From the NCBI GenBank assembly GCA_045541255.1, contig JAZQIU010000051.1:1-61293 (forward strand): a DNA stretch of 61,293 nt, given 5' to 3'. Origin of the DNA: Bacilli bacterium (GTDB taxonomy: Bacteria; Bacillota_I; Bacilli_A; RF39; UBA660). This document shows positions 14,240-30,565 of the stretch, piece after piece. A program made the translations under genes and the position numbers. Under the pieces are notes generated by a model, which was not told the DNA's origin, searched no databases, and saw only the letters and a list, made by a program, of their open reading frames with translations. Each line of letters opens with the position of its first letter. The stretch's first letter is position 1.

Positions 14240-14980
14240 TTAATTTGCAGCGTCTTGTCCTAAGCCACTAACAACGATTTTAGCTTTAATATTTTTATTA
14301 ATAGATGCATTTTGATCAGCAGCTTCATTATTCTTATATTCTAAAACTAATTGATAATATTTTATATCACCTGTAATACTTAAAGTATCAGAAGCAACTA
14401 ATTCAATAGTTTCAGTTCCACCAGCTAAATTTCCAGTTTTAATTGCTTCACCTGCAAAATTACCTTCTGTGTCACTTTCATATAAATAATAGAATAAATT
14501 TGTGCTACTATCTGCTATACCATTTTCAGTTACTTGTAAACTAACTTTATAAGCAGCGGCATCAGTTCCTGTATTTTCAACTTGGAATCTTGCTGGAGCA
14601 ATTAAACCATCTGCAGCAGTTGGTTCAATTGATGGCTCAGCAGCTAATTTACCTTCACCTTCTCCAAATTGATCAGTAGTAACAGCAGCAATAGTATTAA
14701 CCATAACACCATTAACTTCTTTAGCAGTTACTGAATATTTTGGATCATAGAATGTTTCACCATCACTTTTCCATCCTGGAACTACATTTTGAGCAATAAT
14801 TTCTTGTCCACTAGTATAGTTAATTACTAATTCACCAGCAGTTACTTCAACACTTGTATCTTTAGTGTTACCAACAACTGTTGCAGTGAAATATGCATAA
14901 GTAAATCCTACTACTGATAATGCTACAACAAACATTGCTACTATAGCTATAGCTATTTTTCCGTTATTATTTGAATTCAT
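14240..14980 (-). CDS. TasA/CalY-like protein with SipW-class signal peptide
   Basis: Hydrophobic leader ending GFTYAYF; NVVPG, F.VENTG and DQN motifs. Confidence 0.7.
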   Translation of the reverse strand: MNSNNNGKIAIAIVAMFVVALSVVGFTYAYFTATVVGNTKDTSVEVTAGELVINYTSGQEIIAQNVVPGWKSDGETFYDPKYSVTAKEVNGVMVNTIAAVTTDQFGEGEGKLAAEPSIEPTAADGLIAPARFQVENTGTDAAAYKVSLQVTENGIADSSTNLFYYLYESDTEGNFAGEAIKTGNLAGGTETIELVASDTLSITGDIKYYQLVLEYKNNEAADQNASINKNIKAKIVVSGLGQDAAN

Positions 14981-15006
14981 CTTTCTTTATCCTCCTACAA
15001 TAAAAT
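14976..15006 (-). repeat. 31-bp leader/RBS repeat, copy 1
   Basis: ATTTTATTGTAGGAGGATAAAGAAAGATGAA, identical to 22724-22754. Confidence 0.9.
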
Positions 15007-15033
15007 CATACCAAAGAGAAAATATATTGTCAA
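15005..15033 (-). promoter_or_regulatory. SigA promoter of the TasA-like gene
   Basis: TTGACA-17bp-TATGAT. Confidence 0.7.
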
Positions 15034-15117
15034 TTCAAAAATGTAATTTTTTGTAAAAATTATAAAGATATTTTACACATGATTTTTTTTATAAAAAAAA
15101 ATAGGCTTTAAAACCTA

Positions 15118-15537
15118 TTATTTATTTTGTAACATATTTAATAAATCAATCTTAAACATATCCTTAGAAGCATTTGCTTTACTTATCATAACACCTTTAT
15201 AAGTTGTTAATTCAGCCATATGACCTTCTAATAATATATCGGTTGGCGTAATAGTATCTAACATAACAATATTTTGTTCTTTATATACTATATATTTTAA
15301 AGTTACATCACCATGAACTTGTTTAAACATACTATCACTTGGTAATTTTAATTCATAAGTTTCAGTTTTATCAACTTTATTAGTACTGATTAACTCTCCT
15401 ATAAAGTTACCTTTTCTTAATTCCGGATAATATTCAAAGTTAAGCTTTTTATAAGCAAGCATATTATATTTTTTTAATGCTCTTTCTAACTTTTTAAACT
15501 CATTCTCATTAATATAATCTAAAATAAACCCTTTCAT
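15118..15537 (-). CDS. Hypothetical protein
   Basis: 139-aa ORF with AAGGGGG SD; no recognised motif. Confidence 0.6.
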   Translation of the reverse strand: MKGFILDYINENEFKKLERALKKYNMLAYKKLNFEYYPELRKGNFIGELISTNKVDKTETYELKLPSDSMFKQVHGDVTLKYIVYKEQNIVMLDTITPTDILLEGHMAELTTYKGVMISKANASKDMFKIDLLNMLQNK

Positions 15538-15674
15538 AAAATAACCCCCTTATTTCCTATGTGTTAACATTTTAGCACTTTTTACATATTTTGTCAAATT
15601 TCAGAAGTCTGAATTCCCTATTTTTCAATAAAAAAACGGCTTTTTTTAAAATATTTTGCCGTTTTATAACACTT

Positions 15675-15872
15675 TTATTCAGTATCTACACATTTTCCTT
15701 CACCAGGTTTAGCACCTTTTTCATAAACCTGATTAACTAAAGAACAACTAGATTTAGTTATAGCATCTTTTAAATAGCCACCAAAATAATTTACTAAACT
15801 TATAGTTATAACACTTATTAAAGCAATAATAAGTACATATTCTACTAAAGCTTGTCCTCTATTGTTCTTCAT
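15675..15872 (-). CDS. flp: Flp/Tad-type pilin
   Basis: RGQ/ALVEY prepilin motif, hydrophobic helix, C-terminal Cys pair. Confidence 0.75.
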   Translation of the reverse strand: MKNNRGQALVEYVLIIALISVITISLVNYFGGYLKDAITKSSCSLVNQVYEKGAKPGEGKCVDTE

Positions 15873-15911
15873 ATTACCACACCTTTACTCTATAAATAAA
15901 GTATAAAATAT

Positions 15912-16922
15912 TTAATCATTATTGTCAAATATTAAATGATTTTCCCTCAAATGCTCTCTAGCTTTTTCAGTTACTACTCTCCCCCTTGGAGTACGCTTAA
16001 TAAAACCTTCTTGCAATAAATAAGGTTCTACTACATCTTCTATAGTTGTTACCTCTTCTCCAATACTAGCTGCAATCGTTTCCACTCCTACAGGGCCACC
16101 ATTAAACTTAGTAACCAAACTTACTAAATATTCTAAGTCTACTTGATCTAAACCAAATTTATCAACCTTAAGTCTTTTTAAAGCACTATCAGTTATATCT
16201 TTTTCTATTATTCCATCCCCTATTACACTAGCAAAATCTCTAACTCTTTTAAATAGTCTATTTGCAATTCTTGGTGTCTTTCTACTACGTTTAGCTAATT
16301 CTTTAGCAGCCTCATCAGTAATATCCATATTTAAAACTCGACTAGTACGCTTTATTATTTGAGTTAACTCTTCATCAGTATAATAATTTAACTTTGATAC
16401 TATACCAAATCTATCTCTTAATGGACTAGATAAATCTCCAGCTCTAGTAGTTGCACCTACTAAAGTAAATGGAGGTAAATCTATTTTAATATTTCTAGTA
16501 TTACCTTCAGTTCCAACTACAATATCAAGTTCAAAGTCTTCCATAGCAGGATACAATATTTCTTCTATAAACTTTGGTATTCTATGTATTTCATCAATAA
16601 ATAATACATCACCTGGTTCTAATCCAGATAATATCGCTGCCAAATCTCCGCTTTTTTCAATACTTGGACCTGTTGTCGTTTTTATATTTGTTCCTAGTTC
16701 ATTTGCAATTATATGAGCTAATGTTGTTTTTCCTAATCCAGGAGGGCCATATAATAAAACATGATCTAAAGATTCATCTCTCATCTTTGCTGCATCTATA
16801 AATATTTTTATATTTTCCTTTACTTCCTCTTGCCCAATATAATCTTTTATATACTGTGGCCTTAAAGTATTTTCAAAACTATCACAAGATAACTCTTCTT
16901 TTGATACTATTCTTTCATTCAT
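15912..16922 (-). CDS. ruvB: Holliday junction helicase RuvB
   Basis: [16 protein letters not shown] and EPYL..GF..RTPRGR. Confidence 0.97.
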
Positions 16923-16926
16923 ATTA

Positions 16927-17526
16927 TCACTTTCCTAACAACTTTAATGCTTCTTTTATTTGCTCTTCTAAACTTAAATCATTATTAACTTTTGATATAA
17001 CCTTTTTAATATCTCCACTCTTATATCCTAAACTTTCTAATACTTCAATAAGTTCTTTAGAATCATATTGAAATAAATCTGTTTGAGTTGTAAGTTTACC
17101 TTTTAAATCTAATATAATTTGCTTAGCAACTTTCTCACCAATCTTTGGAAATCTTGTCAAATAAGTAACATTATCACTATTAATCGCATCATAGACACCT
17201 TTAATATTTCCACCGGCAAATATTGGCATAGCCATTTTAGGACCAATCCCTTTTACATTAATAAGTTTTAAAAATAATTCTTTTTCTTCCATAGATTTAA
17301 AACCATATAAACTATTTTCATCTTCCTTTATATGATTATATAAATATACTTTTATTTCTTCATTTAATTTATAACTATATGGATTAGCAACATTAATTAG
17401 ATACCCAATCCTATTATTTTCTAATATAATACAATTCTTATCATACCCTGCAACTATTCCAATAATGTAACTATACATTCTATCACATCCTAAAACAATC
17501 TTAACATACATTCGTTTGTATATCAA
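16927..17526 (-). CDS. ruvA: Holliday junction binding protein RuvA; start probably MYSYI at 17478
   Basis: [24 protein letters not shown] and L.SLGY. Confidence 0.95.
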
Positions 17527-17532
17527 TATATT

Positions 17533-17706
17533 TTAAAAAAAATCATAAATTGTTGCAAATATACTATCATCACTACAATATTCTAAAATAAATTTATTTT
17601 ATTTCTTCCACAATTATTATTCCAATTTACTTAATCATAAAGTAATATATTTTTAATCTCATCATAATAATTCAAACAAAAACTCCTCTCACTATAAATA
17701 TAGCGA
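17533..17706 (-). pseudogene. Internally deleted remnant of a yhcG (DUF1016) paralogue with its leader
   Basis: TTG-NYYDEIKNIL resembles the N-terminus, and IGIIIV / NKFILEYCSDDSIFATIY resemble the C-terminus, of ORF 27231-28121; 22-bp and 14-bp DNA identities; same upstream palindrome and SD. Confidence 0.85.
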
Positions 17707-17797
17707 AAATTTTTAAATTTATTAATATTAATCAATTTATAATAACAATTTTCATACATTTTTAATAAACTATATTAGATAGATTAGGAGGTATAAT

Positions 17798-17977
17798 ATG
17801 TACTATTACGGATACAATGGAGGTTATAATCAAGGTTATAACTATAATCCATGCTGTGGAACTTATGCAGGTACTACAAGCGGTTATGGCTGGGGAGCTG
17901 CATTATGGATTGTACTATTTATTTTATTAGTAATCATAATCGGAGCAGGTTGGTCTTGGAACAACAATGCAAACTAA
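17798..17977 (+). CDS. YjcZ/SscA-family small sporulation protein, 59 aa, absent from the ORF track
   Basis: MYYYGYNGGYNQGYNYNPCCGTYAGTTSGYGWGAALWIVLFILLVIIIGAGWSWNNNAN; Gly/Tyr head plus IVLFILLVIIIGA; AGGAGG SD. Confidence 0.8.
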   Translation: MYYYGYNGGYNQGYNYNPCCGTYAGTTSGYGWGAALWIVLFILLVIIIGAGWSWNNNAN

Positions 17978-18000
17978 AAGATGAGTTTCCTCATCTTTTT
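17976..18000. terminator. Bidirectional intrinsic terminator
   Basis: AAAAGATGAG-tttc-CTCATCTTTT. Confidence 0.75.
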
Positions 18001-19546
18001 AATTTGTAATTATTTGTTTTTCTAAAACTAGTTCTTCATTTTCTAGTTTATTATTTATTTGATAATCATTAAATATATTACTAAAATCTTCCACAACTAC
18101 TTCTTTTTCGTCTTCAATTTTTTTAATAACTATATCTCCATTAACAAATTCATAAGTATATTTATTTCCATTTAAACTAAATTCTTTACTCTTAATAGTT
18201 ATAGTATAAAGATTGCTAGTTAATAGTTTATCATTTTCATATGCAAAAGTAATATCTTCACTAGTATCAATTACTAAATGACCAGTCATTTCTAATTCAC
18301 TAATATCAGTCTTTTCTACCAAATAAATATTACCGTTTAATTTAATAGTTGCTTTATCATCTAAATTTTCTTCAATATCATCAGTATTAGATTCTTCTAT
18401 TTCTTTCTCTATATCAGTTGGTAATTCATCTAACACTTCATTAGTTTCTTCTTCAATAACTTCTTCTATTACATTATCTATAACAATATCTTTATTAGTT
18501 TCCTTATCTTCATAAGTACTTTCTATTCCATTTTCATCAACAATTGTTCCTACAACTACATCTTCTGTTAGTTCTTCATTCTTATCATAAACAAATACTA
18601 TATCAAATACATTTACTGTACCAATTTCAAAAACCTTTTCTTCTTCAGAAACTTCTACTTTAATACTTAATTTATATTTACCAGGAGTTTCTACATCTTT
18701 AAACATTTCTTCATTATATTCTTGATAAGTATTAGTATTTTCTTCATTTTGTAATAAATAATATAATTTATATTCTTTATTCAATTCATTTACTATAACA
18801 CTAACTTTATCTATAGTACTAACAAATAAATTTGTATCATTTACTAATTCTTCATTTATTTTTACATCTATACTTATTTTAGTTAAATCTATAATTTCAT
18901 CTATTTCTTCTTCAATTACTTTTTTAGTAGCAATAATACCATATTTAGATAAATGTTTAGCATCAAATTTAATATAACCATCTTCTACTTTAGAATCTAT
19001 AACTTCATCACTAATAACATTATTATCGTCTATATATACAACTTTATAAACATCATATCCTACTAAATCTCCTAATGGTATACTAATCGTAATTAAACTA
19101 TTATTAACACTCTTTTTAACATTATTTACATCATATAAAGAAATATCATATAACCCTACTACATTACTATTTTTTAAACTATCTACTACACTTAATTTAG
19201 TACTAACTATTTTATCGCTATCACTAATTTCATCAGTTAATTTATAATTAAATATCATATTATTATTTTCGTCTATAGTAGATTTATAAACAACTTCATT
19301 AATAACTTCTTCTACTTTTTCTTCTTTTTTATTAACTTTAATTACTTTTTCTTCATCATCTCTATATTCATACTTTTCAGTAGTAACGACATCTTTAATA
19401 GTTGGACTAGTTTTATCAATTTCTTTTTCTCCACTTACTAAAGATTTATTATTAAAATGTACAACCAATACTACTCCTAATATAATTAATAATATTATAG
19501 CTATAACAAAATATTTTGTTTTTGATTCATCTAATTCATATCCCAT
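17999..19546 (-). CDS. Acidic membrane-anchored surface protein with beta-rich domains
   Basis: N-terminal TM, very Asp/Glu-rich; YDISL...ITISIP...FDAKHLSKYGI segment. Confidence 0.65.
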   Translation of the reverse strand: MGYELDESKTKYFVIAIILLIILGVVLVVHFNNKSLVSGEKEIDKTSPTIKDVVTTEKYEYRDDEEKVIKVNKKEEKVEEVINEVVYKSTIDENNNMIFNYKLTDEISDSDKIVSTKLSVVDSLKNSNVVGLYDISLYDVNNVKKSVNNSLITISIPLGDLVGYDVYKVVYIDDNNVISDEVIDSKVEDGYIKFDAKHLSKYGIIATKKVIEEEIDEIIDLTKISIDVKINEELVNDTNLFVSTIDKVSVIVNELNKEYKLYYLLQNEENTNTYQEYNEEMFKDVETPGKYKLSIKVEVSEEEKVFEIGTVNVFDIVFVYDKNEELTEDVVVGTIVDENGIESTYEDKETNKDIVIDNVIEEVIEEETNEVLDELPTDIEKEIEESNTDDIEENLDDKATIKLNGNIYLVEKTDISELEMTGHLVIDTSEDITFAYENDKLLTSNLYTITIKSKEFSLNGNKYTYEFVNGDIVIKKIEDEKEVVVEDFSNIFNDYQINNKLENEELVLEKQIITN

Positions 19547-19637
19547 AATAAAACCCTACCTTTACTATTAAAAGTATATATTTTTTTCTAGTAGTTGTAA
19601 AGAATTAAACGTAAATAAAAAGTAAAGACTTTACTCT

Positions 19638-21908
19638 TTACTTAAATATTTCATCATATATTTCTTGATAATTTTTAACTAATTTAATATTAATATTATT
19701 TTTTACATTTTCTGGTATATCATTTAAATCAATCTTATTATTAAACGGTATATAAACTGTCTTAATATCATTGTTATAAGCACCTATAATTTTTTCTTTA
19801 ATACCACCTACTGCTAGTATATCACCATTTAAAGTAATTTCTCCAGTCATAGCAATATCACTAGGCACTATTTTATTTTTTAAAACACTTAATATAGAAG
19901 TTACTATTGCAGCACCACCACTAGAGCCATCTTTTTTTATACCAGCATTCAATGCATTAATATGTAAATCCAATTTATTAAAATCTACATTAGTATATTT
20001 TTTATATTTAATAAAACTAATACCAACCGAAATACTTTCTTTTAATATTTTTTCAATATTACCAGTTGTTATTATATTTCCATTACCACTTAATTTAATA
20101 CATTCTATCTTTTGAATATTACCACCATAAGGAGTCCAAGCCAAACAATTTACTACTCCCTTATGATTATCAATTTTTTCTTTAGTATACTTAGGTTCTC
20201 CTAATATCTTATTTACATAATCAAATGTTATACTTTTAATTTTATTATTTTCTAAATAATAATTTCTAATTAATCTTTTTAATATTCTATCTAACTCTCT
20301 TACTCCTGCTTCTTTTGTATAATTATTAATTATATAAAGAATTATATCATCACTAAAGTTTATTTTCTTTACACCATATTTTATAAAAATATCCGGTATT
20401 AAATATTTTTTAGCTATATCCATTTTTTCATATTCTGTATAAGAATTAACTTCTATAATTTCCAATCTATCTTTTAAAGCAGAAGGTATATCTTCTAAAT
20501 TATTAGCAGTCAAAATAAACATTACTTTAGATAAATCAATAGGTTCTTCAATATAATTATCTATAAACATAGTATTTTGTGATTCATCCAATATATCCAA
20601 TAAAGTACTAGTAGGATCTCCTTTAAAATCATGAGACATTTTATCTACTTCATCAATTAATATAACAGGATTCATAACACCACATTTATTTATACCTTGT
20701 ATTATCTTACCAGGATTAGCACCTAAAAATGTTTTCCTATGCCCTACTAACTCACTAGAATCATTTAAGCCACCAACACTTATCTTATAAAATTCTCTAT
20801 TCAACGATGCACTAATACTTATTCCTAAAGTAGTTTTACCAACACCAGGAGGACCAACTAAACAAAGTATTGGATTGGATACATCTTTATTAATCTTCTT
20901 AATACTTACAAACTCCAATATACGCTTCTTTATATTTTCTAAACCATAATGAGTTTTGTCTAAATTCTTTTTAACATTTGTTAAATTAGTTTCTTCCATA
21001 GAATAATTATTCCATGGTAGATTTAAAACCCATTCCAAATAATTTCTTATTACACTAGCATCAGGACTATTATCATTAGTATATTCATAACGTTTAATCT
21101 CATTATATAACTTATTCTTAGTCTTATCAGGTAATACTAAATCATCTAATATTTCTTTATAATGATTTACTTCTACTTGTTTATCAGTTAATATTCCTAA
21201 TTCATTATTTAACTTATTTATTTTTTCTTTTAAAATATAATCTCTTTGTTCTTTTTCAAACTTTTCTCTTATTTCATCATCTATTCTAGTATCTAAATTA
21301 ATAACTTCTAACTCTATATTAATATCTTTAATTAAATCTTCAGCACGTTTAATATAATTAAATTCATTCATATATATAAGTTTCTTACTTTGATCCATAG
21401 GTAAAAACGAAACAATAATATCAGTAAGAGTATCCAAATCAGTAACATTCTCTATACTAGATGTTATTACATTACTTGATTCACTATTTATTAAAATATA
21501 TTCATTTATAAGTTCTTTTAATTTTCTAGATAAAGCGGTCTCTTTCACTTCATCATAAGTCTTAATATATAATCTTTTAACAGTACTTTTTAATATACCA
21601 TTATTAGTTTGAAAATATTCTAAAACTTGTACTCTATTAATACCTTTTATAATTATTCTATAATTACCATTAGGCAACTTTATTTTAGTCTTAATTTTAC
21701 CTATAACACCTACTTTAGGTAAATCAGTTGTAGTAGGCTTTTCTTCTAATAAATTTATAGGACTAATAACTAAAATATTTGAATTAAAATTCTTAACAGC
21801 ATCATCTATAGCAGTCTTAGATACATCATTATTTATTTCTAAACGTATTTCTTGATTAGGCAACAATATTAGCTTTTTCAAAAGTAAAATCGGTAAATTT
21901 TCTTTCAT
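19638..21908 (-). CDS. lon: ATP-dependent Lon protease
   Basis: GPPGVGKT, DEVDK, KDGSSGG (catalytic Ser) and GGIKEK (catalytic Lys). Confidence 0.95.
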   Translation of the reverse strand: MKENLPILLLKKLILLPNQEIRLEINNDVSKTAIDDAVKNFNSNILVISPINLLEEKPTTTDLPKVGVIGKIKTKIKLPNGNYRIIIKGINRVQVLEYFQTNNGILKSTVKRLYIKTYDEVKETALSRKLKELINEYILINSESSNVITSSIENVTDLDTLTDIIVSFLPMDQSKKLIYMNEFNYIKRAEDLIKDINIELEVINLDTRIDDEIREKFEKEQRDYILKEKINKLNNELGILTDKQVEVNHYKEILDDLVLPDKTKNKLYNEIKRYEYTNDNSPDASVIRNYLEWVLNLPWNNYSMEETNLTNVKKNLDKTHYGLENIKKRILEFVSIKKINKDVSNPILCLVGPPGVGKTTLGISISASLNREFYKISVGGLNDSSELVGHRKTFLGANPGKIIQGINKCGVMNPVILIDEVDKMSHDFKGDPTSTLLDILDESQNTMFIDNYIEEPIDLSKVMFILTANNLEDIPSALKDRLEIIEVNSYTEYEKMDIAKKYLIPDIFIKYGVKKINFSDDIILYIINNYTKEAGVRELDRILKRLIRNYYLENNKIKSITFDYVNKILGEPKYTKEKIDNHKGVVNCLAWTPYGGNIQKIECIKLSGNGNIITTGNIEKILKESISVGISFIKYKKYTNVDFNKLDLHINALNAGIKKDGSSGGAAIVTSILSVLKNKIVPSDIAMTGEITLNGDILAVGGIKEKIIGAYNNDIKTVYIPFNNKIDLNDIPENVKNNINIKLVKNYQEIYDEIFK

Positions 21909-22014
21909 ATTGCTACCTCCTCGCCAATTGAATTTTATTATAAAAGGAATATAACTTTTTGTAAAGAGAAAAGCAAAAAAAAATCAAATTTTCATTTGAT
22001 TTCTTATTTTCATA

Positions 22015-22728: not shown

Positions 22729-22754
22729 CTTTCTTTATCCTCCTACAATAAAAT
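22724..22754 (-). repeat. 31-bp leader/RBS repeat, copy 2
   Basis: Identical to 14976-15006. Confidence 0.9.
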
Positions 22755-22792
22755 TATATTATATGTCATATTAGTAAGTCAAGACTAAAATT

Positions 22793-23344
22793 TTAATGTT
22801 TTGATATTTTTGACACATTTAATTTTATTTTACTAAACACATCTTCACCAGTCTCAGTTTTAGCTTCTAAAACTAAATATAACCCATCACTTATTAACTC
22901 TTTTTTATACCTTGTAAAATGATTTGGATTACTATTTTTTTCTACAATATTAAACGAAGAAAAATTATTGATTAATTCACTTAATTTTACACTACTTTCC
23001 AACTCTAAAGTATTACTTATTATTTCAACTAATTTAGTGTCATCCATAACATAATAACCAATTTTATAACTCTTTATATCATAATCTACACCATTAATAT
23101 ATTCTATATTATTTCCATTTATCAAATTAATATCTGTATTAAAAGCAATAATACCATCACTCACTCTTATATATTCATCACTACCACTAAAAGAATATAT
23201 TTTATTACTAGAAATTGTATAATAAGCAAAAGCTAATAAAATTATATTTATAACAAATGATATATATATAATTGTTCTATAAGATTTAATAGCATTTAAT
23301 AATTTATCTTTAACCATCTTTTTCTTACTTTTTTTATTTTTCAT
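22793..23344 (-). CDS. Hypothetical single-TM protein
   Basis: Basic N-terminus, TM helix, extracellular domain; last gene of the mraZ operon. Confidence 0.6.
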   Translation of the reverse strand: MKNKKSKKKMVKDKLLNAIKSYRTIIYISFVINIILLAFAYYTISSNKIYSFSGSDEYIRVSDGIIAFNTDINLINGNNIEYINGVDYDIKSYKIGYYVMDDTKLVEIISNTLELESSVKLSELINNFSSFNIVEKNSNPNHFTRYKKELISDGLYLVLEAKTETGEDVFSKIKLNVSKISKH

Positions 23345-23354
23345 AATTCACCCT

Positions 23355-25442
23355 CTAACCTAAATTAATAATCAATTTACTATTAATTTCTTCTCCAACA
23401 GGAATGTTAGTACTAATTACTTTACCACTTCCAATTAATTCATACTCAACATTCATAAAATTCATCAAAGTTTTAACCTCACTTTTAGTAAATCCAGTTA
23501 TATCAATCATAATTTTTCTATCACTATTAGTTCTTAAATAAACTTTTGAACCAATAACAATATTTTTATCCTTTTTTGGATATTGTTCTACAATTAAATC
23601 ACCATCACCAATTATAACAGGAGTTAAACCTTTTTCTTTTAAATTTAAACTTATATCACTAACATATTTATTTAAATAAGATTCTAAATTGACATATTTA
23701 GTTTCATCTTTATTACTTTCTCTTTCGCTTAAATTTTTATATTTAGCAATAGATTCTACTATTGTCTTAGTCATATTCCCCATTGCACTACTAGTTCCAT
23801 CTAAATCTTTTACAGCAACATATATAATATATTCAGGATTATCTTTAGGGAATACTCCAGCAAAAGATCTTATATTATATATACCACTAGAATATTTACC
23901 ACTACTAGTTGTATATTGTGCTGTACCTGTTTTACCAATTAATCTAACAGCATCTGTTTGATAGACTTTTCCAGTTGCAGCTCTATCTTCACCATTTACA
24001 GTTAAATCCATTAAAGACACTACTTTTTCTATAGTACTTTCGCTATATACTTTTGATAATTCTTCCCTTTTTCCCTCATAAATAACATCACCATCTTGAT
24101 CTGTGATTTTATTAACTATATAAGGTTTCAAAACATTACCTTTATTTGTTAAAGTAGTTAATGCCTGAATAATTTGAATAGGTGTTACTGTTATACCTTG
24201 ACCATAAGAAGCAGCCGCTAATTCACTAGCATACATAAAGTTTACTTTACCATTTAATTCACCGTGTAACTCAACACCAGTCTTTTGTCCAAAACCTAAT
24301 TCAGTATAATAATCCAATAATTTTTCTTTACCTAATTTTTGTGCTAATAAAGTAGCAGCAACATTTGAAGAATAAGTAAAACCAACATCATATGTTATAG
24401 TTCCCCAACCTTTATCATTCCAATCATCAATAACATATTCATCTACTACTATTGACCCAGATTGATAAGTTGCATCTCCTTTATATAAACCTTCTTCAAT
24501 ACTAGATGCAAAACTAAATATTTTCATTGTACTTCCAGGTTCATATGTATATGCAACTAAAGGATTATTATAATTTGTAATATTTAATTTATTAGCATCA
24601 AATGTAGGATTTGATGCACTACCAACTATTGCACCAGTTTTAGCATCCGCTACAGTAACGGTTACCCAATCAGTTGAATAATTAGTAACTAAATCACTTA
24701 CAGCATTTTCTAAATACATTTGAATATTAGAATCAATAGTTAGTTCAATATTATAACCATTAAGAGCCTTTTTCTCTTGTACAGGAGTACCTGCTATTTG
24801 ATACCCATAAGGATCTTTTTGATATTTATAATATCCATCTTCTCCACTTAATTCATCATCATAGTAAGATTCTATTCCCATTTCCCCTACTATATCACCA
24901 TTATCATTCTTTTTAGCATACCCTATAATATATGATGCAAAACTACCATAAGGATAGTATCTTTTACTTGTTTTGGTAAAATCTATACCTGGCAAATTTA
25001 ATTCTTCTATCTTTTCTTTCAATAATTCACTTATACCTCTACCCTCAGGTCCTAATTCTACTTGATATGCATCTCTATTTAATAAACCTCTAAGCCTCTC
25101 CTCATCCATCTCTAACACTGGAGCTAAAGCCTTAACGGTACTTTCTACATCTACAACATGTTGAGGATTTTTCTCATTTTTAGTTCTTGATGAAGATAAA
25201 TATGCAATAACTGTATATGAATTTACATTCTCCGCCAAAACTTCTCCAGAACAATCATAAATACTTCCACGTGAAGCATATAAAGTTTTATTTCCAGTAG
25301 TACGAGATAAAGCAAACTCTCCTATATTAATCCCATCTATTGTTGTACTAGCTGAAACATATATTAATTTAGCTATTATTAAAGCAAATAAAAGAACAAT
25401 GCCCACAATAAGAAATTTATTTATCTTTACTGCATTGTTCAT
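23355..25442 (-). CDS. pbpB: Class B penicillin-binding protein (divisional, PASTA domains)
   Basis: STMK, SSN and KTG motifs; follows ftsL. Confidence 0.9.
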   Translation of the reverse strand: MNNAVKINKFLIVGIVLLFALIIAKLIYVSASTTIDGINIGEFALSRTTGNKTLYASRGSIYDCSGEVLAENVNSYTVIAYLSSSRTKNEKNPQHVVDVESTVKALAPVLEMDEERLRGLLNRDAYQVELGPEGRGISELLKEKIEELNLPGIDFTKTSKRYYPYGSFASYIIGYAKKNDNGDIVGEMGIESYYDDELSGEDGYYKYQKDPYGYQIAGTPVQEKKALNGYNIELTIDSNIQMYLENAVSDLVTNYSTDWVTVTVADAKTGAIVGSASNPTFDANKLNITNYNNPLVAYTYEPGSTMKIFSFASSIEEGLYKGDATYQSGSIVVDEYVIDDWNDKGWGTITYDVGFTYSSNVAATLLAQKLGKEKLLDYYTELGFGQKTGVELHGELNGKVNFMYASELAAASYGQGITVTPIQIIQALTTLTNKGNVLKPYIVNKITDQDGDVIYEGKREELSKVYSESTIEKVVSLMDLTVNGEDRAATGKVYQTDAVRLIGKTGTAQYTTSSGKYSSGIYNIRSFAGVFPKDNPEYIIYVAVKDLDGTSSAMGNMTKTIVESIAKYKNLSERESNKDETKYVNLESYLNKYVSDISLNLKEKGLTPVIIGDGDLIVEQYPKKDKNIVIGSKVYLRTNSDRKIMIDITGFTKSEVKTLMNFMNVEYELIGSGKVISTNIPVGEEINSKLIINLG

Positions 25443-25455
25443 AATCCACCTTCTC

Positions 25456-25749
25456 CTATTTAATTACAATTATATTATCATTATTATATGATAATCCATA
25501 AAATTCTGCAATATCTTGAATGTTTGATAGACTAGCAAGTTCATTAACTTGCATTTCCAAACTCTCATTAATATTTTCTTGTTTTTCAACTTTTTTCTTA
25601 ACTCTTTCTAGTTCAATATTACTACGAGATAATATTGATTTACTAGAAACAGTAACCACAGGAGCTAAAGTACCGAATAAAATAATTAAAAAAACAAATA
25701 TTTTTTCACCTTTTAAAAACTTAATTTTCTTACCCTTATTTCTTTTCAT
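25456..25749 (-). CDS. ftsL: Cell division protein FtsL
   Basis: TM plus coiled coil; position between rsmH and pbp. Confidence 0.8.
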   Translation of the reverse strand: MKRNKGKKIKFLKGEKIFVFLIILFGTLAPVVTVSSKSILSRSNIELERVKKKVEKQENINESLEMQVNELASLSNIQDIAEFYGLSYNNDNIIVIK

Positions 25750-25751
25750 AA

Positions 25752-26672
25752 TTATAACCTCTCTATTATTCTTAATTTAGCACTTTTACTCCTACTATTT
25801 TTTTCTATTTCTTCACCACTAGCCACTATTGGCTTATTATTAACTATCTTAATTAATGGTTTATATTCATCAGGAATATTAGGCATTCCTTTAACCACTT
25901 CATCTACTTCACTAAACTTCTTAAATATTTTTTTTACTATTCTATCTTCTAAAGAATGAAATGTTATAACACATAATCTTCCACCCTTATTAAGTAAATT
26001 TATTGCATCAGGTAAAACATCATTCAAAACATTCAATTCACTATTAACTTCTATTCTTAAAGCCTGAAATATTTGTCTCTCAGGATGTTTAGTAACAAAA
26101 TATTTTTTAGGAACAGATGATTCAATTATTCCAACTAATTCTAATGTTGTTTCTATCTCTTTATTTTCTCTATATTTAACAATATTATTCGCTATAACTT
26201 TAGAAAACTTTTCTTCTCCAAAACTATAAAATATATTTGTTAATTCATTTAAACTATATTCATTTACTATTTTCTTTGCAGTCAATTCATTTCTAGTATC
26301 CATTCTCATATCCAATGTAGCATCTTTCATAAATGAAAAACCACGTTCACCATTATCAATTTGAGGACTTGATACTCCTAAATCTAAAAGAATACCATCT
26401 ACTTTATCTACGCCTAAGTCATTTAATACTTTTTTCATATTTACAAAATTATCTCTTATAATTTTATAATTAGCCCCTATTTCACTTAGTTTTTCATTTG
26501 ATTTAGAAACTGCAAAATCATCTTGATCAAAACCATATAGAAAACCATTTGGTATTTGTTTTAATATTTCACTACTATGTCCTGCTAAACCGATAGTCCC
26601 ATCAACATATATACCAGTATCTTTAATATTTAAATTTTCTATACACTCTTGTTTCAACACACTATAATGCAT
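25752..26672 (-). CDS. rsmH: 16S rRNA C1402 methyltransferase RsmH
   Basis: HYSVL, DLGVSSPQ, FQALRIEVN and FHSLEDRIVK. Confidence 0.97.
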   Translation of the reverse strand: MHYSVLKQECIENLNIKDTGIYVDGTIGLAGHSSEILKQIPNGFLYGFDQDDFAVSKSNEKLSEIGANYKIIRDNFVNMKKVLNDLGVDKVDGILLDLGVSSPQIDNGERGFSFMKDATLDMRMDTRNELTAKKIVNEYSLNELTNIFYSFGEEKFSKVIANNIVKYRENKEIETTLELVGIIESSVPKKYFVTKHPERQIFQALRIEVNSELNVLNDVLPDAINLLNKGGRLCVITFHSLEDRIVKKIFKKFSEVDEVVKGMPNIPDEYKPLIKIVNNKPIVASGEEIEKNSRSKSAKLRIIERL

Positions 26673-26674
26673 AA

Positions 26675-27151
26675 TTATTCTCCCCCAAATAAATTTTCTG
26701 CAATACTAGCAAAATTTTCTTCGTTACTATCAAAGAAATTATTCCATGCACCTTCATCCCATATTTCTAGTCGGTCATTAGCGCCGATTATAACGCAATC
26801 TTTAGTTAAACCGGCGTATTTGACCAATGGGGAGGTAATGCCTACTCGACCAGATTTGTCAAGCACACATTCAGTAGCACCAGACAAAAAGAATCTGGTG
26901 AAATCACGTGAGTCTTTTTTTGTAAATGGTAACGTTCTTAATTTGCTTACTATATTTTCCCATTCGACCAAAGAATATACAAATAAACAGTTCTCAAGAC
27001 CGCGAGTAATAACAAACTTTTCTCCAAGTTCACTTCTAAACTTACTAGGAATAATCAATCTGTTTTTTTCATCAATACTATGATGATACTCACCCATCAA
27101 CATATTATTCCCCACTTTCTTCCACAATGTACCACTGTATACATAAATCAT
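26675..27151 (-). CDS. mraZ: Transcriptional regulator MraZ; start probably 27103
   Basis: GEYHHSIDEKNR, DKSGR and EIWD. Confidence 0.95.
   Translation of the reverse strand: MIYVYSGTLWKKVGNNMLMGEYHHSIDEKNRLIIPSKFRSELGEKFVITRGLENCLFVYSLVEWENIVSKLRTLPFTKKDSRDFTRFFLSGATECVLDKSGRVGITSPLVKYAGLTKDCVIIGANDRLEIWDEGAWNNFFDSNEENFASIAENLFGGE
27111..27136 (-). promoter_or_regulatory. MraZ-binding repeats
   Basis: Three GTGG direct repeats with exact 10-bp period (27112, 27122, 27132) just upstream of the mraZ start. Confidence 0.75.
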
Positions 27152-27230
27152 ACACTAAGTTTTCATAAAATACAATATAAAGATTAAAAATTCAACAAAA
27201 AAAATTTACATTTTACAAGAAAACGTAAAT

Positions 27231-28121
27231 TTAATTTAAAATATAAGTAGTTTCAAATATTCTTTTATCACTTGAATATTCTAAAATAAATTTATTACCT
27301 TTTTTTACAATTATTATTCCTATAGTCCTATCTTGACTTATACTCTTTACATTCTTATCTATATAATTCATATACACTTCTATTTGTCCTATATGTTCTT
27401 TCTTTAGTTCAGTAATTTTTAATTCAATAACAACATAACAATTATACTTAATATTAAAAAATAATAAATCAATATAATTATAAGTATCTCCTATCTTTAC
27501 CTTATATTCACTACCAATAAAAGAAAATCCTTCACCTAATTCTTTCATGAAATTTTCTAAATCTTCTAATATTAATTGTTTTAATATTTTCTCTGTAATA
27601 ATTTCATAATTATTAGTATTTTTTATGATTATAGGATTTTTCACAAAATCATTTACAACTAATTTTTCTTTATTTATTAACTTTAACTTAGTTTTTTCAT
27701 CTAATCTTTTATATTCATTATTTTTTATTCTATCATGCAATTGTCTATAAGATAAATTTTGCTGTAAAGATATATTAATATAATAGTTGATTTCGTTATA
27801 ATCCTTTAACATTAATAACTCTGTATAATGACTCCAAGTCAATTGTGTCGGCATAGCCGACACTTTTTCATTACTAAAAATTTTATAAAACTGCCTCATT
27901 CTAAAAAGTGTTCTTTTATTATATTTTTTCCCTACTTCAACCATTAGCTTAGTACTGTATTTCTCCATTATTGTTTCACCATATTTACTGCCAGCCTCAT
28001 ACAATAACTTCCCCACATTACAATAAGTTTTCAAATCACTTCTATTCTTGCTATAATCTTTTACTTTCTTATATACTTCATTATTTATTAATTCAGTTTT
28101 TATTTCATTATAATAACTCAT
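27231..28121 (-). CDS. yhcG: YhcG/DUF1016 PD-(D/E)XK nuclease-domain protein
   Basis: LTWSHY, ELGEGFSFIG, IDLLFFN and YVVIELK...GQ..Y. Confidence 0.9.
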   Translation of the reverse strand: MSYYNEIKTELINNEVYKKVKDYSKNRSDLKTYCNVGKLLYEAGSKYGETIMEKYSTKLMVEVGKKYNKRTLFRMRQFYKIFSNEKVSAMPTQLTWSHYTELLMLKDYNEINYYINISLQQNLSYRQLHDRIKNNEYKRLDEKTKLKLINKEKLVVNDFVKNPIIIKNTNNYEIITEKILKQLILEDLENFMKELGEGFSFIGSEYKVKIGDTYNYIDLLFFNIKYNCYVVIELKITELKKEHIGQIEVYMNYIDKNVKSISQDRTIGIIIVKKGNKFILEYSSDKRIFETTYILN

Positions 28122-28133
28122 ATAAAACTCCTC

Positions 28134-28151
28134 TCACTATACATATAGTGA
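28134..28151. promoter_or_regulatory. Palindrome abutting the yhcG SD
   Basis: TCACTATA-ca-TATAGTGA; near-identical copy at 17689-17706. Confidence 0.6.
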
Positions 28152-28179
28152 TTTTTTCGGTAATTCCTTTTTATTCAAC

Positions 28180-28500
28180 AAAAAAAGACTGTAATTTATA
28201 CAAATGCCCTTTCGTATTAACTACTTACACATTTATATTTTACAATCTATTTATTTAGGTTTTACCCAAGGAAATATGCTTGTTTCAGGTAGGCATCTCT
28301 CTACCATAGCATTATTATGTTATGAGATAGCCACAAATCTGAAATTAAGGGGCGCAGACTGTTATTGTTGTTCACATTGTTGTTGTTCACGTTGCCATCA
28401 TTGTTAACGTTGAATGCGTTATCGTTACCATTGAAGTTGGCCGGAGAGAGAAGGAATGTAAAAATCTCTCACCAACTCTATGCTAACCCAAATAGCATCA
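28180..28500 (-). ncRNA. Putative stand-alone DGR template RNA (5' hairpins, TR, structured 3' spacer, U-tract)
   Basis: 5' hairpin AUGCUA/UAGCAU; TR; 3' long stem AGAUUGUAA/UUACAGUCU enclosing an AGUA/GAA motif, then a U-run; boundaries approximate. Confidence 0.6.
28349..28451 (-). repeat. DGR template repeat (TR)
   Basis: Non-coding, AAC/AAT-rich copy of the VR (reads LSPANFNGNDNAFNVNNDGNVNNNNVNNNNSLRP); shares both ends with the VR. Confidence 0.92.
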
Positions 28501-28618
28501 TTCCCCAAAATAAAAATATATATAAATTTTTATTTTCATAATTTTAGTAAAGATTTTTTTATCTTTTCACTTTAACTTACACACTATCGTGTATATTAAA
28601 TACTCTTTTTATATTAAT

Positions 28619-28646
28619 AGTCCTGTGGAAAGGTTTCCACAGGACT
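28619..28646. other. Perfect 13-bp inverted repeat (cruciform/hairpin) downstream of the DGR target
   Basis: AGTCCTGTGGAAA-gg-TTTCCACAGGACT. Confidence 0.8.
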
Positions 28647-28674
28647 GTTCTTCTTAGATTTATAGATCATGGAC

Positions 28675-28689
28675 GTAGTCTTCGACTAC
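28675..28689 (-). other. GAA-triloop hairpin just after the target stop codon
   Basis: GTAGTC-GAA-GACTAC on the minus strand. Confidence 0.65.
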
Positions 28690-28699
28690 TTTACCATCC

Positions 28700-30565
28700 T
28701 TATCCAACAACGTATGGACTAGTTTTTGTTCCATTTCCTCCAGTGATTACTGCACTAGATGCTAATGAAACTGCGGGGCGCAGACTGATGTACTCAAGGG
28801 ACACAACGTCGTAGTCGCTCACGCGGCCATTGATGTAAACGCGGAACGCGTAATCGCCGTTGCCATCGAAGTAGGACGGAGAGAGAGACCACCAGTATAA
28901 ATAATTTTTCATTTGATAATTATTTAGTAAGTAATAATTATAATTTGAAGAACCTGCTTTTCCTCCTGCAAATACTACTTCATCTGCTGTTAACGCTCCT
29001 ATATATGATTCAAATGTTTTATCATTCTTTCCATCACATCTTAATGTTGCATTTGCTGTTTCACCTGTTCCATATAATCTCTTAGCAGCTTCATAATAGA
29101 ATGATTTACTATTATACATCAAATCATTTACACTATCAGTTAATAATGCTCCTGTTGATGTATTATATGGATCAGTTGTATTTCCTAAACACCATGTATC
29201 CATTTTTAATTTACTTGTATCTATTCCACTACTTGTTAACCATGTATCAAATTGTGCCTTCATTGATGTACTTGTATTTGTTGGACTATTTAAATAATCT
29301 GCTACGTACTTATTACCTGATGATTGTTGACCACTTGAATTTGTTACTTTTGTTTGATTATATCCATAATGTCCTGTTCCAATATCCCAACTTCCATCTG
29401 ATGAGGCACATGTACTATCTTTATCTTCAAGTACTAATTTGATTGCACCATCACCTTCGATACGTACGATTCTCCAACATTTTCCTGCAAAATCAACATA
29501 GTTGTCTTCTACTTTACCTCTATAATAATATGAAGTTCCTAAATCATCTTGCGTTACACTTAATACATTTTCATAATCTTTAATTTCTTTATTTGACATA
29601 GGAGTTCCATCGCTTGTACAAGCATCAACTTTTCCTACAATATCACACCATGCTCCACAATTATATGAATCCGAAATATATTTTCCTATTACACTATTAC
29701 ATTTTTCTACATCTGTTGACCCTGCTACAGTTGTAGAACTATCATTAGCTTCATCAGCAGTATCACCATATGTTAAGCCATCCCAACCAAAGAATCCATC
29801 AGATGGAGTTAATGTCACAAGCCCAGTCTTACCAGTACCTACTGCACCACTAATATTTTGAGCAACATTAGTTTCTGCAGCTCCTGATAATGTTGTACCA
29901 GTCTTACCTGATATAGCATTATTTATTATGTTATATGCTAAAGTACTTGTATTTGCACTATATGGATTTAATGAAGCTATATCTTTAATATTTACTCTTG
30001 CTGTTAAAGTTTTATTCATATCATTACTTTGATTTCTACCAGTTTCTTTATATGTTACTGTTAAAGTATATGAATGTGTTTTACCTACTTCAATATCATT
30101 TCCTACTAATATTCCACCATTTATTGGGAATACTGATGCACTACTTACACCATCACAAGCAACACCATCACTTGTACATGTTAATGTATATACAAAGTCA
30201 TTGCTTTCAAATGTTGTTGCTGTTCCTGCTGTTTGAGTTACACCATCAACTTCAAGTGTTTCAGCATAAACTACACTAACATTTTCAATTACTACTACAT
30301 AATCAGTTACAGCATTACCTTCATTTTTTACAGTAAAAGTCTTACTATCTATAGTAGTACCTGGCAATATTTTAGTTGTTGGTTCAATAATACCATTACC
30401 ATCATCATATACTAATGCTAAGTTTGCAGTCTTAACAGAAATAGATTTAGAATTTGTATTACCATTAATTCTTGTTAAGAAATATGCATACGTTAATCCA
30501 ACGATAATTAAAAGAACTAAAAATATACCTGTTACACTAACTATTATTTTTTGTCTTCTATTCAT
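28700..30565 (-). CDS. DGR target protein: SipW-class leader, TasA-like domain, C-terminal C-type-lectin-like domain
   Basis: GLTYAYF leader; YYRG...NYV.F....WRIVRI, IGALTADEV..AG, WWSLSP...LRPAVSL and GNGT..SPY motifs; VR at the 3' end. Confidence 0.88.
   Translation of the reverse strand: MNRRQKIIVSVTGIFLVLLIIVGLTYAYFLTRINGNTNSKSISVKTANLALVYDDGNGIIEPTTKILPGTTIDSKTFTVKNEGNAVTDYVVVIENVSVVYAETLEVDGVTQTAGTATTFESNDFVYTLTCTSDGVACDGVSSASVFPINGGILVGNDIEVGKTHSYTLTVTYKETGRNQSNDMNKTLTARVNIKDIASLNPYSANTSTLAYNIINNAISGKTGTTLSGAAETNVAQNISGAVGTGKTGLVTLTPSDGFFGWDGLTYGDTADEANDSSTTVAGSTDVEKCNSVIGKYISDSYNCGAWCDIVGKVDACTSDGTPMSNKEIKDYENVLSVTQDDLGTSYYYRGKVEDNYVDFAGKCWRIVRIEGDGAIKLVLEDKDSTCASSDGSWDIGTGHYGYNQTKVTNSSGQQSSGNKYVADYLNSPTNTSTSMKAQFDTWLTSSGIDTSKLKMDTWCLGNTTDPYNTSTGALLTDSVNDLMYNSKSFYYEAAKRLYGTGETANATLRCDGKNDKTFESYIGALTADEVVFAGGKAGSSNYNYYLLNNYQMKNYLYWWSLSPSYFDGNGDYAFRVYINGRVSDYDVVSLEYISLRPAVSLASSAVITGGNGTKTSPYVVG
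28775..28886 (-). repeat. DGR variable repeat (VR)
   Basis: 112 bp at 57% GC (64/112) inside an AT-rich gene; about 21 of 27 substitutions versus the TR fall at TR adenines. Confidence 0.92.

Follow-up and report, generated by a model that had tools for sequence, protein, structure and literature searches.

Three genes scattered over one contig of an uncultured gut bacterium raise the question of what their products build, and of how one of them came to end in a domain with hypervariable positions. The contig is JAZQIU010000051.1 of assembly GCA_045541255.1 (Bacilli bacterium; GTDB lineage Bacteria; Bacillota_I; Bacilli_A; RF39; UBA660). The window, that is, the stretch of 61,293 bp analyzed here, is the entire contig (C51), part of a metagenome-assembled genome of 1.37 Mb with about 25% GC, 92.7% completeness and 4.46% contamination. 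We suggest that the three genes, called P1, P2 and P3, belong to a family of secreted, TasA-like fibre subunits that are processed by a SipW-type peptidase, and whose lectin-like heads are varied both by the choice of paralogue and by a diversity-generating retroelement (DGR) that acts in trans. We hold this reading with a little more belief than doubt. The proteins and the parts of P3 on which the argument turns are as follows.

14240..14980, minus strand: P1, open reading frame (ORF) for a short TasA-like protein of 246 aa
22015..22728, minus strand: P2, ORF for a short TasA-like protein of 237 aa
28700..30565, minus strand: P3, 621 aa, with a leader, a TasA-like N-domain, a middle region and a DUF6273/lectin-like C-domain that holds the variable region (VR)
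30485..30565, minus strand: signal peptide of P3 (codons 1-27), with predicted SipW-type cleavage after T-Y-A27
29972..30484, minus strand: TasA-like jelly-roll domain of P3 (codons 28-198), from the VIA-align match to 8aur_A
within 29972..30484, minus strand: putative donor strand of P3 (residues 28 to about 47), pLDDT below 50
28703..29575, minus strand: DUF6273 / C-type-lectin-like domain of P3 (codons 331-621), from VIA-align fold matches

Kinship, fold and leader of the family

An earlier note on this DNA had described three minus-strand genes with a leader ending in G(F/V/L)TYAYF and with shared PG, F.V.N and (D/N)Q(N/S) motifs, and all of these are present at the positions it gave. Each leader has a basic n-region and a hydrophobic stretch followed by GFTYAYF (residues 25-31 of P1), GVTYAYF (23-29 of P2) or GLTYAYF (23-29 of P3). 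In P1, P2 and P3, respectively, the PG motif reads VPGW, IPGE and LPGT, the F.V.N motif FQVEN, FTVVN and FTVKN, and the (D/N)Q(N/S) motif DQNAS, NQNIE and NQSND. The similarity extends well beyond the motifs. BLASTP aligns P2 in full to residues 1-194 of P3 (E 6e-19) and the first 77 or so residues of P1 to P3 (E 2e-11). With the leader removed, a hidden Markov model (HMM) of the mature P3 N-domain finds P2 at E 1.3e-9 and P1 at E 1.1e-8, the latter in two pieces spanning residues 30-238; P1 scores E 2.3e-17 against the N-domain HMM, and the hmmsearch ties among the proteins range from E 1e-8 to 1e-20. Profile against profile, the P1 family (33 homologues) matches the P2 family (36 homologues) over 202 columns (hhalign 99.3%, E 1.9e-20). 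Judged by these comparisons, P1, P2 and P3 are homologous, with a similarity far beyond chance.

The kinship of this family with TasA and camelysin, proposed in the same note, is borne out by both family and fold matches. Pfam PF12389 (Peptidase_M73) scores 28.8 bits on P2, above its cut-off of 22.5, and at E <= 0.01 it is found in 28/36 members of the P2 family, 6/33 of the P1 family and 3/45 of the P3 family. A scan of the genome with PF12389 gives five places, including the long paralogues C37 and C5a (named, like the others below, after their contigs) over HMM positions 3-176 of 196, and among 14 control genomes B. subtilis alone has a match. The AF2 model of the whole P3 protein (pLDDT 86.8, pTM 0.81) superimposes on the fibre form of TasA: residues 43-196 match 8aur_A by VIA-align with Z 8.2 and rmsd 3.3 over 135 residues. 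This chain is the second best of 48,161, and the next one follows at Z 6.7, 1.5 Z lower. Chaperone-usher pilin domains are among the fold matches of P3 too (PapG pilin domain, Z 6.7; Csu, Z 6.5). For the P2 model (pLDDT 79.6), the best Foldseek match is again 8aur_A (E 3.8e-3, probability 0.93). Among language-model neighbours, the named Atlas clusters nearest to the mature P3 N-domain carry PF12389. Profiles of the P2 and P3 families searched against PDB sequences reach no TasA or lectin entry (best E 0.34 and none, respectively). The Pfam name might suggest a metallopeptidase, a role that we reject, as P1 contains no histidine and P2 and P3 lack HExxH. The peptidase naming of camelysin is itself regarded as a likely misidentification in the available text of PMC11580942.

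The C-terminal half of P3 is lectin-like, and P3 is the one member of the three with such a domain and with a VR in it, both as the note had it. Residues 207-621 of the model match 9qa6_A (residues 32-303) by VIA-align with Z 13.3 over 212 residues at 18% identity. This structure is the N-terminal DUF6273 domain of the Thomasclavelia ramosa IgA peptidase (PMC12402451). The C-terminal domain of Legionella Lcl (8q4e) follows at Z 6.5 with 125/131 residues, phage DUF6273 proteins match P3 in the BFVD viral library (E 2.5e-4), and Atlas clusters for the C-domain carry PF19789. PF19789 does not match P3 itself at E <= 0.1 and is sparse among its homologues, with 1/45 scanned at E <= 0.01 and 2/120 of those listed, the C37 paralogue among them. 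Mtd and TvpA are absent among the matches listed for the whole-protein model. For the DUF6273 domains of phage DGR targets, a resemblance to C-type lectins and a VR placed in surface loops are described (PMC10743442, in the text available). The checks of the monomer structures that the note had called for agree with a TasA fibre fold at one end of P3 and a lectin-like DUF6273 fold at the other.

The family is far larger than the three dispersed genes of the earlier account. A search with the N-domain HMM finds 13 N-domain ORFs in the assembly:

six complete long members: P3, C5a, C37, C24 and two on C30
five short members: P1, P2, C4, C5_5415 and C27
two ORFs cut by contig ends

Three further long copies lack the N-terminus, those on C21 and C48 being cut at a contig edge. 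Together the family occupies about 19.9 kb, or 1.5% of the assembly. Beyond this genome, P3 has 830 homologues at E <= 1e-3 among 8000 scored candidates. Each of 15 other genomes of the genus (about 1.0-2.1 Mb each) contains 12-48 stretches that match P3, and matches are found in 21/24 genomes of the family and in 0/16 genomes from other families of the class. It is a large, lineage-specific expansion. The copy numbers of the short proteins are different in kind. Full-length P1 is present once in 14/16 genomes of the genus and twice in the other 2, and near-full-length P2 once in 15/16, among the matches listed. P1 and P2 lie on one contig, 1.6-22 kb apart, in 10/16 of these genomes, and 7.8 kb apart here. 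The genome also holds several ORFs that consist of the C-domain alone. A 353-aa ORF at C27:16660-17721 (minus strand; L005 10661-11722) has the tail '...RP..Q.....ITGGNGT..NPY..G' of the P3 lectin-like domain, lacks the TasA-like N-domain, and lies about 4 kb upstream of the tasA-like/sipW pair described next.

The earlier note found no sipW gene in the window and made the case depend on one elsewhere in the genome. There is indeed none within the window, yet a SipW-type peptidase is encoded at C27:11079-11594 (TIGR02228, 99.4 bits; NF046067 SipW, 83.6 bits), the sole TIGR02228 match of the genome. It lies directly downstream of a 235-aa paralogue (C27:11736-12443) whose leader reads GATFAYF, and a two-component system precedes the pair. 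Since an ordinary bacterial signal peptidase I is present as well, the SipW-type enzyme is an extra peptidase. SipW is kept in 15/15 other genomes of the genus and in 22/24 genomes of the family. In a related genome (G007, contig C35; L090 4114-8845), the order is response regulator, kinase, tasA-like gene (238 aa), sipW, avd, reverse transcriptase (RT) and a long member (527 aa). Thus, the peptidase, the retroelement and the fibre-type family are physically linked there. No template repeat (TR) was found in this contig piece by similarity to the TRs of the present genome.

Cleavage of P3 is predicted to fall after T-Y-A27. The TasA site reads T-W-A/A-F, and its likeness to T-Y-A/Y-F was judged by eye. 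Within the P3 family, conservation is strongest in the leader and the first 23 or so mature residues, with column entropies of 0.58 bits for the leader and 0.59 bits for residues 28-50, as against 0.98 bits for the whole N-domain. In the AF2 monomer models of P3 and P2 the N-terminal mature segment has low confidence. Low confidence would be expected for a strand that pairs in trans. In TasA, the mature form and the donor strand both begin at residue 28 (PMC9674648).

The variable region of P3 and its template

The 3' end of P3, where the VR lies, is GC-rich and resembles an AAC-rich stretch 435 nt downstream. The relevant features are these.

28762..28885, minus strand: DGR variable region of P3, which pairs with the template repeat TRc on contig C37
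28787..28873, minus strand: diversified codons of the VR (residues 565-593)
28771..28783, minus strand: GC-rich hairpin CTGCG-CCC-CGCAG at the 3' end of the VR, from a terminator-like call plus the alignment
28340..28451, minus strand: orphan AAC-rich, TR-like copy, one of four in the genome
27231..28121, minus strand: YhcG/DUF1016 PDDEXK-nuclease gene (Pfam YhcG_C, E 2.1e-35; DUF1016_N, E 4.6e-23)

P3 contains a genuine DGR variable region, as the note had supposed, and the template is not the one at its side. The four TR-like copies of the genome are the copy in the window and TRa, TRb and TRc on contig C37. The VR aligns to TRc over 124 bases with no gap and 24 mismatches, 23 of which are at a template A. 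Given 44 A in the 124 TRc positions, the binomial probability of 23/24 mismatches at A is 7e-10. The adjacent copy gives 28 mismatches, of which 8 are not at A, and 9 gap columns (three 3-nt gaps). We therefore regard P3 as a remote target, since TRc matches it ungapped with mismatches at A, whereas the neighbouring copy needs gaps and leaves 8 mismatches at other bases. A repeat search with seed 10 and length 40 missed the VR/TR pair, one with seed 7 gave a 29-nt piece, and the pair was first seen by eye.

The order of the locus on C37 is a target gene (615 aa), a MutS-like 123-aa gene, TRa, TRb, a DUF1016 nuclease gene, TRc, a 119-aa Avd-like gene and a 386-aa RT. The RT is a full-length ORF with no stops (RVT_1, 62.9 bits) and contains IGNMTSQ, which fits [ILV]GxxxSQ, the hallmark motif of DGR-type RTs. 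The 119-aa ORF overlaps the start of the RT and matches Avd weakly (16.6 bits against a cut-off of 80). The MutS-domain-I-like gene (C37:34743-35114; L004 7744-8115, minus strand) is kept in 4/6 of the related loci that hold an RT. MutS-like (MSL) genes are a known class of DGR accessory gene (Wu et al. 2018, PMC5758913), and the same source, in the part available, describes both remote targets and the pairing of MSL with Avd in DGRs outside phages.

The target on C37 differs from TRa at 15 A and 1 G. As this target pairs with TRa and P3 pairs with TRc, each target has a TR of its own. TRb and the TR-like copy in the window have no matching VR in the assembly. The long paralogues C5a, C24 and C30 were considered as further targets and rejected, their tails matching none of the four TR copies. 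By the coordinates, P3 and TRc are at least about 45 kb apart even if C51 and C37 abut. The hairpin CTGCG-CCC-CGCAG is perfect in both VRs, that of P3 and that of the C37 target, and weakened (CGCAA) in the TR copies on C37. We presume it to be the target-recognition element of the DGR, like the IMH and hairpin elements of other DGRs.

The same pattern is seen across the family. When P3 is aligned with 44 homologues (47-70% identity), the mean column entropy is 2.93 bits at the 23 VR codons whose first or second base is A in TRc, 1.12 bits at the 17 other VR codons and 1.29 bits in the rest of the C-domain. The alignment shows diversification of A-coded codons throughout the family. Among 80 related loci fetched from species genomes, six have an RT within 7 kb. 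In five of these, from further species, the VR/TR mismatches are 19/19 and 22/22 at A, then 20 at A plus 1 other, 18 plus 2, and 20 plus 4 (with gaps); one RT-bearing locus holds three TR copies. Relatives of the RT are present in 10/15 other genomes of the genus. As to assembled contigs from public runs, the listed pieces of X1, X2 and X4 break off at the diversified edges of the VR, for instance at 28786 / 28865, and no piece crosses it. These ends say nothing about variation within a sample, because P3 is fragmented elsewhere too owing to its paralogues.

The YhcG/DUF1016 gene accompanies the TR-like copy in the window and has a paralogue among the TRs on C37. Since it is present in only 2/80 related loci, it is probably not a core part of the system. 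A 76-nt stretch at 17532-17607, downstream of ruvA, is 78% identical to 27230-27305, the 3' end of this gene, and may be the relic of another copy of the TR/DUF1016 cassette. The genome has a second DGR-type RT (354 aa, with LPIGNFTSQ) at C6:166238-168743 (L002), beside small holin-like and phage-like ORFs. Upstream of it are a 109-nt repeat pair, 92.7% identical with 8 mismatches, and tandem repeats of about 158 nt. Judging by these features, this RT probably belongs to a prophage DGR of its own, whose target is rich in repeats.

Proposed assembly of the subunits and competing explanations

In B. subtilis, SipW frees residues 28-38 of TasA, which are then donated to the following subunit, so that a strand starting at about residue 28 is passed on, and the minor protein TapA is thought to supply the first strand (PMC9674648). 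In C. perfringens, BsaA subunits are further locked by an intermolecular isopeptide bond between Asn35 of the donor strand and Lys74, with Glu56 as the catalyst. According to the text available, BsaA paralogues without the triad form no long oligomers, and TasA polymerizes without an Asn-Glu-Lys triad (PMC11580942).

The residues that would matter for such a lock divide the present family into classes. In the P3 family (45 sequences), N36 is found in 45/45, D55 in 39/45 and K75 in 45/45. In the P1 family (33), N38 is found in 33/33, the acid is not conserved, and no Lys column reaches 80% outside the leader. In the P2 family (36), K74 is found in 32/36, Asn at position 36 in 6/36 and D/E56 in 22/36; P2 itself has Lys74, with Glu at the donor position. 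A regex count over the 388 proteins fetched gives the same division: both Asn and Lys occur in 179/180 leader-bearing proteins of at least 450 aa, Asn alone in 73/75 leader-bearing P1 hits, and Lys alone in 35 P2-type proteins.

We suggest the following course of events. Each protein would be exported through its TasA-type leader and cut after T-Y-A by the dedicated SipW-type peptidase encoded elsewhere. The freed, conserved N-terminal strand would then enter the jelly-roll of a neighbouring subunit by donor-strand exchange, so that a surface fibre may form. The long members, such as P3, would bear a DUF6273 / C-type-lectin-like head behind the fibre module, with many alternative heads available as paralogues. 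Two long members, P3 included, would be rewritten in trans at about 23 codons by one DGR, made up of MSL, Avd and RT with several TRs. The outcome would be an adhesive fibre with ligand-binding heads that vary by paralogue choice and by adenine-directed hypermutation. Subunits with both Asn and Lys, that is, the long ones and some of the short, could be joined into chains, while an Asn-only subunit of the P1 type could be the first and a Lys-only subunit of the P2 type the last. Such an order agrees with the copy numbers, the long genes being many and P1 and P2 present once each per genome. We infer that the long proteins are the polymerizing units and P1 and P2 the end subunits. In its fullest form, the idea is of an ordered, covalently locked heteropolymer with a P1-type start, a P2-type end or anchor, and between them lectin subunits drawn from tens of paralogues, some continuously rewritten. 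We offer this form tentatively and consider it doubtful.

Several points weigh against what we propose. The fibre, the cleavage and the bond are all drawn by analogy. P1 and P3 match no Pfam family at E <= 0.1, and the P2 model compares with TasA only middlingly by VIA-align (Z 5.7), level with unrelated jelly-rolls. The search with TIGR04088 (an HMM of 34 positions with a cut-off of 19 bits) that the earlier note had proposed matched none of the three proteins with E up to 10, and the C27 paralogue beside sipW stays below the cut-off at 11.7 bits (E 0.23). The equivalence of N36/D55/K75 with N35/E56/K74 of BsaA is one of position and spacing between unaligned sequences, the acid is Asp where BsaA has Glu, and it is missing in 6/45 members of the P3 family. 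Since TasA polymerizes without the triad, the missing Asn or Lys does not bar P1 and P2 from a shaft. A complex prediction for mature P2 with the mature P3 N-domain scored 0.30 against a mark of 0.32 and counts neither way. As for the retroelement, the VR and its template lie on different contigs of a metagenome-assembled genome with the contamination given above, so that their origin in one cell is assumed. The entropy across homologues covers diversification family-wide, not current activity at the P3 locus.

The earlier note had made P1 and P2 the repeating shaft of a fibre and P3 its adhesin, and a non-covalent fibre of the TasA type with P1 and P2 as the shaft and long members such as P3 as alternative tips, one per fibre, is an explanation that has to be weighed. 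P1 and P2 are conserved, single-copy and syntenic, as structural core pilins would be, the long members are many and variable, as exchangeable adhesins would be, the conserved N-terminal strand is common to all members, and the triad is dispensable for TasA (PMC11580942). However, the long members keep both the donor Asn and the acceptor Lys, invariant in the P3 family and nearly so in the wider count, and a tip alone does not need both. P1 lacks a conserved Lys, P2 lacks the Asn, and it is the C27 protein, neither P1 nor P2, that has sipW as its neighbour. The shaft and tip roles are thus not supported, and we consider this arrangement unlikely. Alternatively, there may be no fibre at all, with the long proteins being single surface or secreted lectins that are anchored by an N-terminal helix or released, the jelly-roll a stalk, and P1 and P2 unrelated matrix or spore-coat-like proteins of the same fold. 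AF2 does draw the first 31-34 residues as one long helix, a C-terminal anchor motif is absent, which makes the N-terminus the only possible tether, and many DGR targets are single surface proteins (PMC5758913, in the part available). Nevertheless, the T-Y-A / Y-F site obeys the small -1/-3 rule and mirrors the position of TasA cleavage, and a dedicated SipW is kept throughout the genus beside the normal signal peptidase I. The strong conservation of residues 28-50 is hard to explain for a mere linker, and the nearest structural match is the fibre form of TasA. For these reasons, an explanation by single lectins seems improbable to us.

The remaining alternative concerns the VR rather than the fibre. 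It could have been written once by a DGR and be a frozen relic by now, the family varying through its paralogues only. The location of the RT on another contig and the degeneracy of the adjacent TR-like copy relative to the P3 VR would be in keeping with this. However, TRc, Avd and the uninterrupted 386-aa RT ORF are intact, all mismatches but one are at A with no decay at other bases, and the 3' hairpin or IMH-like end is intact in both VRs. Remote targets are, moreover, known for DGRs outside phages (PMC5758913). We give the frozen relic little credence and consider it very unlikely. We favor, then, the reading proposed at the outset, of SipW-processed, TasA-like subunits whose lectin-like heads are varied by paralogue choice and by a DGR in trans. 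Relative to the earlier interpretation, the kinship with TasA, the SipW-type peptidase, the lectin-like head and the DGR are retained, while the choice of template, the size of the family and the shaft and tip roles were wrong or unproven.

Gene setting, known systems and meaning

The three genes are scattered among housekeeping genes in the ORF list. P1 has ruvB and two small genes on one side and ftsE on the other. P2 is flanked by lon and by the pbp gene of the mraZ-rsmH-ftsL-pbp block, and P3 by murE and mraZ. We reject a phage origin of P3, since murE lies on one side of it and the mraZ-rsmH-ftsL-pbp block on the other, and phage genes are absent nearby. Three signals surround the genes.

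15005..15033, minus strand: promoter-like site upstream of P1 (TTGACA-17-TGnTATGAT type, 11/12 matches)
22753..22782, minus strand: promoter-like site upstream of P2 (TTGACT-18-TATAAT, 11/12 matches)
28619..28646, minus strand: 13-bp inverted repeat, 54 nt past the P3 stop codon, read by eye

The promoter scan gave 132 sites in total against 135 in shuffles, and the lack of an excess weakens the calls at P1 and P2. The inverted repeat, which the terminator scan did not call since a T-run is absent, is likely the transcript end of P3, judging by its position and symmetry.

Other features of the contig and the genome are noted here for completeness. Two genes upstream of P1 is a 65-aa Flp/Fap-type pilin gene (MKNNRGQALVEY...) at 15675-15872 (minus strand), with a Pfam Flp_Fap score of 31.1 bits, slightly below the cut-off of 32.2, and a promoter-like site of its own at 15900-15928. 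Genes for one prepilin peptidase and for three ATPases of the T2SSE type lie on other contigs of the genome. Type IV pilus genes are said to be needed in part for the export of BsaA oligomers in C. perfringens (PMC11580942, in the text available). The ORF directly upstream of P1 (15118-15537, minus strand; 139 aa) has no Pfam or NCBIfam family. The same is true of the ORF directly upstream of P2 (22793-23344, minus strand; 183 aa), which has one N-terminal membrane helix. Between ruvA and lon is an ORF for a very acidic, Glu/Asp/Ile-rich protein of 515 aa (17999-19546, minus strand), with one N-terminal membrane helix, no family, and a sub-threshold SVM_signal match only. Contig C13 (1899 bp) is probably a contaminant of the bin, since its GC content is 57% against about 25% on all other contigs.

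Among known systems, the family can be set beside the TasA/TapA/SipW fibre of B. subtilis (PF12389; PDB 8aur, 5of1). Both have a Sec leader, a dedicated SipW and a jelly-roll subunit, as seen here from the Pfam and fold matches and from the sipW gene beside a paralogue. In contrast to B. subtilis, there is no tapA-sipW-tasA operon around the genes of the window, and the family has grown to at least 13 genes. A lectin-like head on an extension of about 420 aa is found in most members, two are DGR targets, and the sequences are too dissimilar from TasA to give a match among PDB sequences. Sortase pili and chaperone-usher pili (FimH, PapG) are ordered heteropolymers as well, built by Lys-based links or donor-strand exchange, with lectin adhesion and special first or last subunits. 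Here, however, there is no sortase signal, usher or chaperone, the proposed link would be autocatalytic, and every long subunit would carry a head. The BsaA system of C. perfringens (sipW-bsaA-bsaB-bsaC) also has a remote TasA homologue that is processed by SipW, exchanges donor strands and is then locked (PMC11580942). Asn36, Asp55 and Lys75 of the long members lie at nearly equal positions, a positional and unaligned correspondence with Asp as the acid. Unlike BsaA, the subunits here carry lectin heads, and the division into Asn-only, Lys-only and combined classes does not appear in the available part of the BsaA account (PMC11580942).

The DUF6273 targets of phage DGRs, the tentaclin type, share the C-type-lectin-like fold, the VR on surface loops, the adenine-specific differences between TR and VR, and the pair of Avd and RT (PMC10743442). 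In Faecalibacterium prophages, too, DGR targets are grouped with DUF6273 / C-type-lectin variable domains (PMC11792537). Those are receptor-binding proteins of phages. In the present case, the targets are genes of the cell, located on the chromosome, and combine a TasA-like fibre module with a SipW leader. Their DGR further differs in its MSL gene, in TR copies that number at least three beside the RT, with an orphan copy elsewhere, and in having a target on another contig. It can also be compared with the cellular DGRs of Treponema and Legionella (architecture D; Wu et al. 2018, PMC5758913), which, by the text available, are not linked to phages, have MSL and avd, have targets far from the RT and show A-to-N differences only. 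It departs from them in a target that joins a TasA-like module to DUF6273 and in the use of distinct TRs for each VR, TRa for the C37 target and TRc for P3. The DUF6273 domain of the T. ramosa IgA peptidase (PDB 9qa6), to which the C-terminal half of P3 is structurally most similar, likewise belongs to a surface protein of a gut member of the Bacillota. That protein joins the domain, which is not hypervariable, to an M64 peptidase and a sortase motif, and the text available names no ligand for it (PMC12402451).

TasA-type fibres, DUF6273 targets of DGRs, and MSL-type DGRs with remote targets are each known, and their combination appears to be new. A literature search found no paper that joins DGRs with TasA, SipW or camelysin; the supplements of the BsaA preprint, which perhaps list members, were outside that search. 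The known role of TasA-type fibres is to scaffold biofilms, and that of DGRs is mainly to diversify phage tail fibres and a few surface lipoproteins. We found no earlier description of a fusion between a donor-strand fibre module and a hypervariable lectin head.

The system is kept throughout the genus in uncultured, small-genome gut Bacilli, with tens of copies per genome, which points to a main role in attachment to host glycans, mucus or partner cells. The Asn-only, Lys-only and combined classes provide a testable assembly rule for a Gram-positive fibre. The multi-template DGR acting in trans suggests that seemingly orphan VRs in such genomes can have their template elsewhere. If the heteropolymer, doubtful as we consider it, proved true, the orphan VRs of this lineage would be live remote targets rather than fossils. 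A gut bacterium of 1.2-1.4 Mb would then be spending about 1.5% of its genome on a pilus that bears, from one end to the other, binding heads from a combinatorial, antibody-like repertoire.

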